From Escherichia coli (GTDB taxonomy: Bacteria > Pseudomonadota > Gammaproteobacteria > Enterobacterales > Enterobacteriaceae): a stretch of DNA of 64,000 nt. The notes under the pieces were generated by a model that did no database searches, had not been told where the DNA came from, and saw only the letters and a program-made list of their open reading frames with translations. A program made the position numbers and the translations under genes. Every line of letters starts with the position of its first letter. Within the stretch, counting starts at the first letter, position 1. Location: NCBI RefSeq assembly GCF_003334765.1, contig NZ_QOWT01000001.1, one strand, 5' to 3'. Below, piece after piece: positions 1,720-45,253 of this stretch.

Positions 1720-3222
1720 TTACGCTACGGCTGCTTTCGCCGCTTTGTCTGCAGCGTCATCCTGCGTCATGCGGTGCAGTTTCGGCGCGGTCAGCAGCAT
1801 CAGTACTGCAATAACGGCAGTAGCGACACCAATCTGCAAGAATACGCGACCATAGACTTCCAGTGACATCAGCGGATCGGTAACGTTATCCGGCACAGCC
1901 ATCATACCCGCAACATAACCACCAATCAGGTTTGCACCGGCAGTGGTCAGGAACCAGCTACCCATAATGAAGCCCATCAGACGCTGCGGAACGAGTTGAG
2001 CAACCATTGCCAGACCCAGACCAGAGATCATCAGTTCCCCGATGCTCTGCAGGCCATAGCTTGCGACCAGCCAGCTTACAGACACGATACCAGCGTCAGA
2101 CGCGAATTTCGCACCCAGCGGCAGAATCAGGAACGCACCAGAACACATCACCATGCCGATTGCAAACTTGGTTGGCATCGGCAGGGTATCGCCCATCTTG
2201 TTATAGATAGCGGCCAGAATCGGACTACCGATGATGATCCAGAACGGGTTCAGTGCCTGATACTGCTCAGGTTCTACGGCCAGACCCAGAATGGAGTGCT
2301 CAACGTTACGAATCGCAAAGAAGTTCAGTGACGTTGGCATCTGGCTGTACAGCACGAAGAAGATAATGGCTTCGAGCATCAGGATGAAGGCAACGATCAT
2401 TTTACGACGCGCAGCACCTTTCATCGCGAAGGCTTCTTTACCGAAGATAACCACGATACCGAAGGCAACAACGCCCAGCGCCATACGCGCAACTTCCTGA
2501 TTGTGCAGCAGCCAGGTGGCGATAGCGATCAGTGCCACAACACCAATAATGGTCAGCAGCAGGTTACGGTAGTTGATAGGCTCGAAGTCTGGTTTTGAAC
2601 CGTACTGTTTAACCCAGCGTTGGCAGAAGGCGAAGTTAACGATAGTGATCAGCAGGCCTACAACGCTCAACGCAAACGCAACACTCCAGCCGTATTTCGC
2701 GGCCAGCCACGGCGTAGCAATCATAGAGAAGAAAGAGCCGATGTTGACGGACATGTAGTACATGGTGAATGCACCGTCCAGACGCGGGTCGTTTTTCTCA
2801 TAGCATGTAGAAAGCAGAGAAGACGGGTTAGCTTTAAACAGGCCGTTACCGACCGCAATAGCCGCCATACCCATATAAACGATACCGGCGTCGTGACCAG
2901 ACCAGGCAACCAGAGCATAACCAATCGCCAGCACAATAGCGCCGAGCATAATTACGCGTTTAGTACCCAGTACCTTGTCACCTAACCAGCCGCCGATAGC
3001 GACCAGACCATAAACCAGGGCACTAAAGGAAGAGAAAAGGGTGATTGAATCCGCTTCAGACATACCCAGTTGTTTAACCAGGTAAACAGCCATAATTCCT
3101 TGTAGGCCGTAATAACCAAAACGTTCCCATAACTCAATCGAGAAGATGAGATAGAACGCCTTCGGTTGTTTGAAAGCGTTCAAACTGACGCTTTCAGTTG
3201 GTTTTTGGTTTGCAGTGGACAC
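1720..3222 (-). CDS. dtpA: proton-dependent di/tripeptide permease (POT family)
   Basis: 500-aa [30 protein letters not shown]..., multi-TM POT transporter. Confidence 0.93.
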
Positions 3223-43091: not shown

Positions 43092-43175
43092 TCAGGAAAG
43101 ATAAAAACGGGCGGCAATCAGTGCGCATAAAATAAGGATGATCAGAATGAACTCAAAGCGATAACGGCCCACCAT
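43092..43175 (-). CDS. ydgU: small hydrophobic protein YdgU (27 aa)
   Basis: manual translation of the minus strand gives MVGRYRFEFILIILILCALIAARFYLS then stop; below the ORF-track length cutoff. Confidence 0.6.
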   Translation of the reverse strand: MVGRYRFEFILIILILCALIAARFYLS

Positions 43176-43267: not shown

Positions 43268-43576
43268 TTACGCTGCGGGTTGTGCAGCAGGTTTTGCCGG
43301 TTGCTGATGGCTGTGTTTCTTGGCGTGTTTCTTCGCTGCCTGCGCTTTTTGTTCAGGGGCTTTCTGTTCAGCTTTCGTATTTTTATGATGCTTTTTAGCC
43401 GCCTGCGCTTTCTGGGCAGGTGCTGCTTTATGCTGTTTTTTATGATGTGTAGTTTTCGCCGGCGCTGCTTTGGTGGTCGTCGCAGTCGGAGCAGGTGTGG
43501 TCGTAGTCTCTGCAGCAAAGGCGGCAGAAGACAGACCCATAGCAGCGGCAACAACCAGAGCTAATACTTTTTTCAT
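43268..43576 (-). CDS. asr: acid shock protein
   Basis: start placed at [21 protein letters not shown] (signal peptide) giving 102 aa; Lys/Ala/His-rich repeats. Confidence 0.9.
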
Positions 43577-43961
43577 TGTCATACCCTCAATTTGTTTTTT
43601 CATTTAACCCCACTGCGGGGCCGTTGAAATAACTATATCCCTGGGAATGGCAGACTTCCGTGAGTGGTTGGTTTCAGCGTGTAACGATATGTACAAACGC
43701 TGAATAAATTACAGCGTTGATAATAACGTATTGTGACTTAAGGGAAATTTAGCTACCAATAATAGTAGTCTTGATCGGGTTAACTATTTTACTACTTACA
43801 AAGCAGTAGAATAACTGCGCATCAGTAATAAATGACACACAGCAAAATGAATCCGTTTATTTGGGTACTTATAATCCTGATGACGCTAGACGCGCTGCGG
43901 GAATTGGCTGGCGCTTCGTCTATTTTAGGATGGCTATTAACGTTGGTTTGAGCTGGCAATA

Positions 43962-43999
43962 AGTCCGGACGGGTATTTACCGCAGTCCGGACTTATTTT
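43962..43999. terminator. hairpin immediately downstream of ynfM stop, with T-run on the plus strand
   Basis: aagtccggac/gtccggactt stem followed by attttt on the plus strand. Confidence 0.5.
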
Positions 44000-45253
44000 T
44001 CAGGCGTGCAGACGACGATGCAAACGCGTCCCGACCAGCAGAGCAATGACCAGCATCAGAGCAATAAATGCGCCGACGCCGTTCCAGCCATAGTTATGCC
44101 AGAAAACACCACCCAGCGTCCCGGCAATACTCGACCCCAGATAGTAACTGAACAGATACAGCGAGGAGGCCTGGCCTTTAGCGCGTTTTGCGCGGGGGCC
44201 GATCCAGCTGCTGGCTACTGAGTGGGCTGCGAAGAATCCTGCTGAGAAGAGTAACATTCCGGCAAAGATCAGCCACAGCGAGCTGAATAAGGTCATCAGT
44301 AAACCAAACAGCATAACCCCCGTCGAAAACAACATCACTGGACCACGCCCATAGCGGGTGGTCATGGTTCCGGCTTTGGGTGAGCTCCATGTACCGGTCA
44401 AATAAGCCAGCGATAATAAGCCAACCACGGCCTGACTGACATGCCAGGGGGAGAGCATCAACCGATAGCCGATGTAATTAAACAGCGTGACGAACGACCC
44501 CATCAGCAAAAAGCCTTCTGCGAACAATAACGGTAATCCCCGGTCACGCCAGTGCAGACGAAAGTTGATAAACAACGTCTTAGGGCGCAGCGAAGTCGGG
44601 CGAAAATGGCGTGATTCAGGGAGGATTTTCCAGAACATCAACGCCGAGGCCAGCGCGAAACAACCGATTGCCGCCAGAGCAATTCGCCAGTTGAAAAAGT
44701 CCGTGAAGACACCGCTAATTAAGCGTCCGCTCATGCCGCCAATTGAGTTGCCGCTGATATACAACCCCATTGAAAAGGCCACGAAACTGGGATGGATTTC
44801 CTCGCTAAGATAAGTCATGCCAACAGCTGCCACGCCACTTAACGAAAGCCCAATCAAGGCGCGCATAATCAAAATGCCGTGCCAGCTGGTCATCATTGTC
44901 GAAAGTAACGTACAAATGGAGGCCAACAGTAGCGCCGTGACCATCACTGGTTTGCGACCAATGGCATCGGATAGCGGGCCAGTAAACAGCAAACCAATAG
45001 CCAACATCGCCGTGGAAATGGACAGTGAAATACTACTGTTCGCGGGGGTTAAGCCAAACTCCTGCGAAAGCACCGGAAGGATAGGCTGCACACAATAGAG
45101 AAGTGCAAATGTTGCCAGTCCGGCAGAGAACAGCGCCAGGGTGACGCGCATAAATTGCGGCGTACCGCGTTTAATAAATTGATTTGGCTGAGAAATGCTT
45201 TGCTTGTCAGTGTCGCTTGCCGGAGCGCCATCAACAGTTGTAGTACGGCTCAC
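44000..45253 (-). CDS. ynfM: MFS transporter
   Basis: 417-aa ORF, 12-TM MFS topology. Confidence 0.9.
   Translation of the reverse strand: MSRTTTVDGAPASDTDKQSISQPNQFIKRGTPQFMRVTLALFSAGLATFALLYCVQPILPVLSQEFGLTPANSSISLSISTAMLAIGLLFTGPLSDAIGRKPVMVTALLLASICTLLSTMMTSWHGILIMRALIGLSLSGVAAVGMTYLSEEIHPSFVAFSMGLYISGNSIGGMSGRLISGVFTDFFNWRIALAAIGCFALASALMFWKILPESRHFRPTSLRPKTLFINFRLHWRDRGLPLLFAEGFLLMGSFVTLFNYIGYRLMLSPWHVSQAVVGLLSLAYLTGTWSSPKAGTMTTRYGRGPVMLFSTGVMLFGLLMTLFSSLWLIFAGMLLFSAGFFAAHSVASSWIGPRAKRAKGQASSLYLFSYYLGSSIAGTLGGVFWHNYGWNGVGAFIALMLVIALLVGTRLHRRLHA

Follow-up and report, generated by a model that had tools for sequence, protein, structure and literature searches.

The DNA analysed here, a stretch of 64,000 nucleotides of Escherichia coli that we call the window, contains a 423-bp spacer (43577-43999) between asr (43268-43576, minus strand) and the MFS efflux transporter gene ynfM (44000-45253, minus strand). 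The spacer is identical to its counterpart in E. coli K-12 MG1655. On its plus strand lies a small open reading frame, 43847-43951, which runs from an ATG at 43847 through 33 further sense codons to a TGA at 43949-43951 and specifies a 34-aa product of the KPN_01571 family, MNPFIWVLIILMTLDALRELAGASSILGWLLTLV; in MG1655 coordinates, the gene occupies the minus strand from 1671105 (the first base of the ATG) to 1671001. It is divergent from asr, which adjoins it only in Escherichia, and convergent with ynfM, whose stop codon is 48 bp away and which provided the synteny anchor for the comparisons below. Between the two convergent stop codons stands a GC-rich hairpin (43958-44000). All coordinates that the original prediction gave for the spacer, the reading frame and the hairpin hold on recheck.

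Two smaller features of the neighborhood deserve mention. Just downstream of asr lies ydgU (b4601; 43092-43175, minus strand), an annotated hydrophobic small protein of 27 aa; less than 1 kb of DNA here thus carries two small hydrophobic reading frames, of which K-12 annotation has only ydgU. In addition, asr has an in-frame ATG nine codons upstream of its annotated start (43577-43603, minus strand). As this upstream stretch includes the GAGGG ribosome-binding site of the annotated asr start, the additional ATG is probably unused.

Family membership and annotation

Compared with known proteins, as the original prediction had proposed, the 34-aa peptide matches the NCBIfam model NF033695 (“trnsprt_adja_30”, KPN_01571 family protein) with 64.0 bits (curated cut-off, 35), the alignment covering profile positions 1-29 of 30. 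It has the length (about 30 aa) and the motifs of the family, with the same N-terminal MNPF-W and with D15, R18 and G22 at the same positions, and the transporter adjacency in the model's name (“trnsprt_adja”) is found here in the form of the MFS gene ynfM as convergent neighbor. Alternative products score as well: a 39-aa form with its start at 43832 reaches 63.3 bits, and a 22-aa deletion variant still reaches 45. The gene is single-copy and, judged by sequence and position, the positional orthologue in E. coli of KPN_01571 from Klebsiella, each being the third gene in an arrangement ynfL-ynfM-X. Escherichia members differ from the rest of the family by a 4-residue C-terminal extension, which accounts for the 34 rather than 30 residues of the E. 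coli protein.

The gene is not new, as RefSeq already annotates it as a KPN_01571 family protein, with CDS WP_001351109.1 at the identical coordinates 43847-43951. The original prediction named no annotated gene at this spot, which is correct for the curated K-12 record NC_000913.3, where no gene is listed between ynfM and asr, but not for RefSeq/PGAP annotation. The spacer is present in 5,423 of 5,426 complete E. coli genomes, and the listed RefSeq/PGAP records place a CDS there; these listed records differ among themselves, some having the 34-aa WP_001351109.1 and others a 23-aa “hypothetical protein” that begins at an internal ATG. We rejected this 23-aa form (WP_211114082.1, starting at M12), since it would lack residues 1-11, where conservation within the family is highest. 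The 34-aa sequence is found unchanged on at least 1,000 contigs. Searches of Pfam, PDB sequences, PHROGs and PADLOC gave no match to the peptide, and our literature search found no paper naming KPN_01571, NF033695, the peptide, or ynfM and asr together with a small protein; the family owes its name solely to automated and curated NCBI modelling.

Research on small bacterial proteins takes E. coli K-12 as its reference organism, and the K-12 genome has been screened for them repeatedly. The 34-codon gene, missing from the curated K-12 gene list, is a good candidate addition to that record, with a dN/dS of about 0.14 within Escherichia and, in some 98% of the complete E. coli genomes, a nearly identical sequence. 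Small hydrophobic proteins beside transporters form a well-known category, and the find is in kind unsurprising.

Expression signals and variation within E. coli

The start codon chosen in the original prediction, 43847, proved to be the conserved one. A second in-frame ATG at 43832 would add MTHSK and yield a protein of 39 aa; this extension (43832-43846, plus strand) is probably 5′ leader rather than coding sequence. The codon at 43832 is GTG in E. albertii, and the NF033695 profile begins at MNPF. The 39-aa form was rejected, as only Escherichia has the extension and a 1-nt deletion puts it out of frame in E. whittamii. Neither ATG is preceded by a Shine-Dalgarno sequence (acacacagcaaaATG), so the original remark that no strong one is evident holds for both.

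A candidate −10 hexamer, TAGAAT, stands at 43807-43812 on the plus strand; it agrees with the consensus at five of six positions and would put the transcription start at about 43819-43821, leaving a leader of about 27 nt. The heptamer GTAGAAT does not vary among six Escherichia lineages and is also found in two Citrobacter species, with CATAAT or TAAACT at about the same distance in other genera. No acceptable −35 element was found for this hexamer, and a consensus promoter scan came back empty. The leader (...AATAAATGACACACAGCAAA-ATG) is almost invariant within Escherichia; in the centroid fold of the predicted 183-nt transcript, neither it nor the start codon is base-paired, a state that is compatible with Shine-Dalgarno-independent initiation, if no proof of it. 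Going by these sequence elements, the small gene appears to have its own promoter. It would then be transcribed from this promoter with its conserved −10 hexamer and translated from an unstructured, A/C-rich leader that dispenses with a Shine-Dalgarno sequence, and its transcript would end at the hairpin that presumably also closes the convergent ynfM transcript.

The hairpin itself begins six bases past the stop codon of the small gene. Its arms (43958-43970 and 43985-43997) form a 13-bp stem that folds with −26.2 kcal/mol (z = −5.2 for the plus and −6.6 for the minus strand), and a plus-strand TTTTT run (43996-44000; tail UUAUUUUUC) overlaps the ynfM stop codon, so that the plus strand has the GC-rich stem-loop and U-tract of an intrinsic terminator. 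A terminator scan did not call it, because its loop exceeds 8 nt. Among Escherichia, three of the 13 stem pairs show compensatory double changes and the flanks CAATAAG and CTTATTTTT are invariant. The hairpin thus resembles the bidirectional terminators of convergent genes, with a GC-rich stem, an A-rich flank on one side, a T-run on the other and covariation in between; it is unlike them in that the ynfM strand, with the same stem, has only the weak tail UUAUUGCC, in that the strand bearing the T-run is inconsistent among genera, and in that Term-seq tables hold no matching 3′ end. In 24 of 25 orthologous loci a GC-rich hairpin stands between the two convergent stop codons, the T-run being on the ynfM strand in Kosakonia and on neither strand in Klebsiella. 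The original prediction allowed that the hairpin might simply be the bidirectional terminator of ynfM. It is indeed common to ynfM, but not that gene's alone: with the T-run on the strand of the reading frame, it is better read as a shared convergent terminator, and the fact that the stronger terminator faces the small gene argues for a plus-strand transcript.

Published expression tables were consulted for the same interval. In the Term-seq tables of Adams et al. (2021; PMC7815308), the interval 1670900-1671199 has no 3′ end on either strand; low expression of both genes in those media would lead one to expect as much, so that this result counts only weakly against transcription. The supplements to a ribosome-profiling study of acid stress (PMC10746267) contain neither the coordinates 1671001, 1671103, 1671105 and 1671120 nor any number containing “16711” nor the string MNPFIWV, and the Salmonella census and ROSE supplements gave no match.

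Within the species, 5,352 of the 5,426 complete genomes match the region of the reading frame with at least 95% identity, and 73 further genomes fall in a band of 80-90% identity. The one genome of this band that was inspected, UPEC 26-1 (locus L087, 316-384), has a 13-bp deletion corresponding to window positions 43910-43922, which shifts the frame and leaves a product of 22 aa (MNPF...RELAF); an identically truncated protein is named in Nissle 1917, and protein clusters contain rare frameshifted or truncated variants from Shigella and elsewhere. Since the deletion truncates the product, the C-terminal third may be dispensable; the N-terminal two-thirds would thus be the constrained part of the protein.

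Could the gene then be functional in other genera while being silent or decaying in E. coli, its sequence kept without useful expression? Several of the above observations would fit: the missing Shine-Dalgarno and −35 elements, the absence from curated K-12 annotation and of a 3′ end from the Term-seq tables, the spread of the frameshifting deletion in one lineage (about 73 of 5,426 genomes), and the many rare broken variants among E. coli and Shigella protein clusters. However, the near uniformity of the region across the species sits poorly with decay, as does a dN/dS of 0.14 across six Escherichia lineages, in which 12 of the 21 variable sites are at third codon positions. Furthermore, the −10 hexamer, the leader and the plus-strand T-run are invariant across Escherichia species, and intact members of Kosakonia, Citrobacter, Enterobacter and Huaxiibacter lack a Shine-Dalgarno sequence as well. 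We therefore regard silence in E. coli as improbable. The best overall explanation is, with a probability of roughly 0.8, that the reading frame is a genuine conserved gene encoding a very small membrane protein with one helix.

The predicted peptide

The original prediction of a single-helix small protein agrees with AlphaFold2, which, supplied with the family alignment, predicts one continuous helix over residues 3-33 with a mean pLDDT of 91.7. The peptide is strongly hydrophobic (GRAVY 1.48; best 19-residue Kyte-Doolittle mean 1.66), and its only charged residues, D15, R18 and E19, lie mid-helix and give a net charge of −1. In the family alignment M1, N2, P3, L11, A16 and G22 are invariant and W6, D15 and R18 are conserved at 90% or more; a small-residue stretch, G-A-S-S-x-x-G, follows. 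Such a hydrophobic helix of 31 residues, with an acid-base cluster spaced i/i+3/i+4 and a small-residue face, fits a helix-packing peptide with a single span. That the protein is a membrane helix is somewhat favored, and its topology is uncertain because the charges fall in mid-span. The peptide would insert in the inner membrane as a single span and, as other small bacterial membrane proteins do, probably act by packing its mid-helix D/R/E cluster and small-residue face against a larger membrane protein, a partner that may be an exporter.

Alternatively, a short hydrophobic helix of this kind could be a membrane peptide resembling the type I toxins (TisB, DinQ, ZorO, Ibs, Ldr), poorly translated and with its mRNA neutralised by an antisense or nearby small RNA. 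In common with these toxins, the peptide has polar and charged residues along its helix and comes from a stand-alone gene that has poor signals for translation, no Shine-Dalgarno sequence and a terminator of its own, and its family is distributed patchily, at different loci in different genera. Yet the RNA partner on which such a system depends was not found: the comparison with known small RNAs, which the original prediction had suggested, ended without a family when 43500-44100 was searched against Rfam (E up to 10), no antisense element was found in the same interval, and no promoter-like site was found on the opposite strand. Type I toxin mRNAs have long, folded leaders, whereas the leader predicted here has only about 27 nt and lacks structure. 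The peptide carries a net negative charge and is missing the typical C-terminal basic residues; moreover, each genome has the gene once, at a fixed syntenic site, and the PADLOC and PHROG searches returned no match. Taken together, these differences make a toxin of this type very improbable.

Selection on the reading frame and history of the locus

The firmest support for a genuine gene comes from other genera. By itself, the presence of an open frame proves nothing, as frames of such length are common by chance: in 5,000 first-order Markov randomisations of the asr-ynfM spacer, 64% contained a closed ATG-initiated frame of at least 34 codons, and significance can come only from conservation across genomes. 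Syntenic regions were retrieved via YnfM from 80 species-representative genomes of Enterobacteriaceae. Of the 80 species, 25 have an orthologue that faces ynfM in convergent orientation at a distance of 97-210 bp from the ynfM stop codon, among them five Escherichia lineages, three Citrobacter species, Klebsiella, Raoultella, Kosakonia, Phytobacter, Pluralibacter and relatives. The other 55 species have ynfM with no gene at the site and no remnant detectable by HMM, from which it follows that YnfM does not need the small protein. Outside Escherichia the orthologues are exactly 30 codons long, save for 35 in Citrobacter amalonaticus, and follow the consensus MNPFxWVFIALLxLDAVRELxGASSILGxx. Their DNA is only 56-69% identical to that of E. 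coli (about 40% divergence), and the frame is still open.

The pattern of variation is that of coding sequence. Column entropy is 0.87, 0.31 and 1.31 at codon positions 1, 2 and 3, so that variation is greatest at the third and smallest at the second position, and the numbers of invariant columns are 7, 16 and 2, respectively. The pN/pS ratio is 0.33 in frame as compared to 0.55-2.3 in the five other frames, each of which is hit by stop codons in some of the sequences, so that none stays open. Within clades, where dS is unsaturated, dN/dS is 0.08 in Klebsiella/Raoultella, 0.11 in Kosakonia/Phytobacter and 0.20 in the Pluralibacter-like group, next to the 0.14 of Escherichia. Frame conservation, which the original prediction had named as a check, is thus borne out across genera, and 43847-43951 is very probably a real coding gene under selection.

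That prediction had also cautioned that the frame may be chance. A fortuitous frame in an AT-rich spacer, beside a hairpin that would be only the ynfM terminator, accords with the outcome of the randomisations and with the missing Shine-Dalgarno sequence, but it is refuted to the point of being hardly credible by amino acids conserved across genera despite the extent of DNA divergence, by a near-constant length of 30 codons outside Escherichia, by the codon periodicity and low dN/dS, by the existence of a curated NCBIfam model, and by an Escherichia T-run that lies on the strand of the frame and not on that of ynfM. Equally remote is the reading of the conserved element as a non-coding RNA or a regulatory DNA site with an incidental open frame, for although the predicted transcript folds slightly better than shuffled sequence (z = −2.1), Rfam holds no match to 43500-44100, members at unrelated loci keep the peptide and not the flanking DNA, and the concentration of variation at third codon positions points to selection on protein rather than on RNA or DNA.

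In K. pneumoniae the order is mlc-ynfL-ynfM, then the convergent KPN_01571-family gene, then a gene for an M32 carboxypeptidase, then asr. An M32 gene directly follows ynfM in most other genera, where the ynfM-M32 spacer measures about 250-340 bp in most genera that have the small gene and about 80-110 bp in those without it (Enterobacter, Leclercia, Trabulsiella, Buttiauxella). Escherichia differs in having lost the M32 gene, which in most other genera stands between the small gene and asr, and this loss left the small gene divergent from asr. The missing gene is about 1.5 kb long (K. pneumoniae locus L098, 797-2284), and window positions 43577-43846 are the spacer that remains in its place. 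A functional tie between the small gene and asr was considered and rejected, as the two are adjacent only in Escherichia and the M32 gene intervenes in Klebsiella.

Beyond this site, a profile search of 1.84 billion representative proteins yielded 48 clusters, in which all members tested pass the NF033695 cut-off. At another locus, past the yciY terminator, Enterobacter ludwigii, E. cancerogenus, Lelliottia amnigena and Huaxiibacter chinensis encode members of 42-44 aa, co-directional with and just upstream of a LeuE-like gene for a LysE-type exporter; in E. ludwigii an Exc2-family lipoprotein gene lies between the two. In E. ludwigii, L. amnigena and H. chinensis these LeuE-side members map to about 3001-3130 or 2501-2635 of the retrieved regions (loci L088-L092 and L096-L097). 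Enterobacter, Lelliottia and Huaxiibacter are missing the copy beside ynfM, and in H. chinensis both facts come from one and the same assembly (ynfM-side copy absent from L045, LeuE-side copy present in L096). Cronobacter sakazakii provides a third genomic context, a 30-aa copy (L093, 3001-3093) between copCD/yebY-side genes and a gene for a pphA-like phosphatase, which is not beside a transporter and is thus an exception to the adjacency that characterises the family. The LeuE-side and Cronobacter members likewise have no Shine-Dalgarno sequence. With members at differing loci, the gene behaves as a small, self-contained cassette with alternative sites. There seems to be one copy per genome, at alternative exporter loci according to genus, as checked directly in Huaxiibacter.

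What might such a cassette do? Exporter genes adjoin two of the three family sites: in Escherichia, Klebsiella and Kosakonia the small gene is found downstream of ynfM, an MFS gene, and in Enterobacter, Lelliottia and Huaxiibacter directly upstream of the LeuE-like gene. Several small inner-membrane proteins bind and modulate transporters, among them AcrZ with AcrB, MgtS with MgtA and PitA, KdpF with KdpABC, and MntS with MntP. Like these, the KPN_01571-family peptides fall near 30-50 aa, have a single predicted helix with polar and small-residue motifs in the span, and are encoded beside transporter genes, here those of exporters (the MFS gene ynfM, or the LeuE-like LysE gene in Enterobacter, Lelliottia and Huaxiibacter). 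Unlike these, they show no sequence similarity to the known modulators and no PDB or Pfam match, and the small gene is convergent with ynfM, not co-transcribed with it, and is missing from most genomes that have ynfM. That the small protein modulates a transporter is on balance a possible but unlikely reading, and a more doubtful one still is that the family forms a new class of exporter-associated small membrane proteins. If it were true, the peptide would bind and tune efflux proteins via its mid-helix D-x-x-R-E motif and small-residue face, and K-12 would possess an unstudied efflux modulator outside its curated small proteome. The repeated siting beside exporter genes is for the present a testable lead, not a result.

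Finally, some database records place the locus on plasmids or a phage. A mobile-element origin was rejected, as the “plasmid” records are chromosome-sized or chromosomal fragments and the one “phage” is a 1.7-kb fragment; PHROGs and PADLOC returned nothing that would point to such an origin. Several of the PLSDB records carrying the locus (4.8-5.4 Mb) appear to be mislabelled chromosomes. The phage record, OR851553.1 (“Salmonella phage S.Kent 1-2-1”; 1,688 bp, unannotated), is probably a chromosomal fragment as well; its minus strand encodes at 127-210 a peptide that is 57% identical over residues 1-28, which suggests that Salmonella also has a member of the family.
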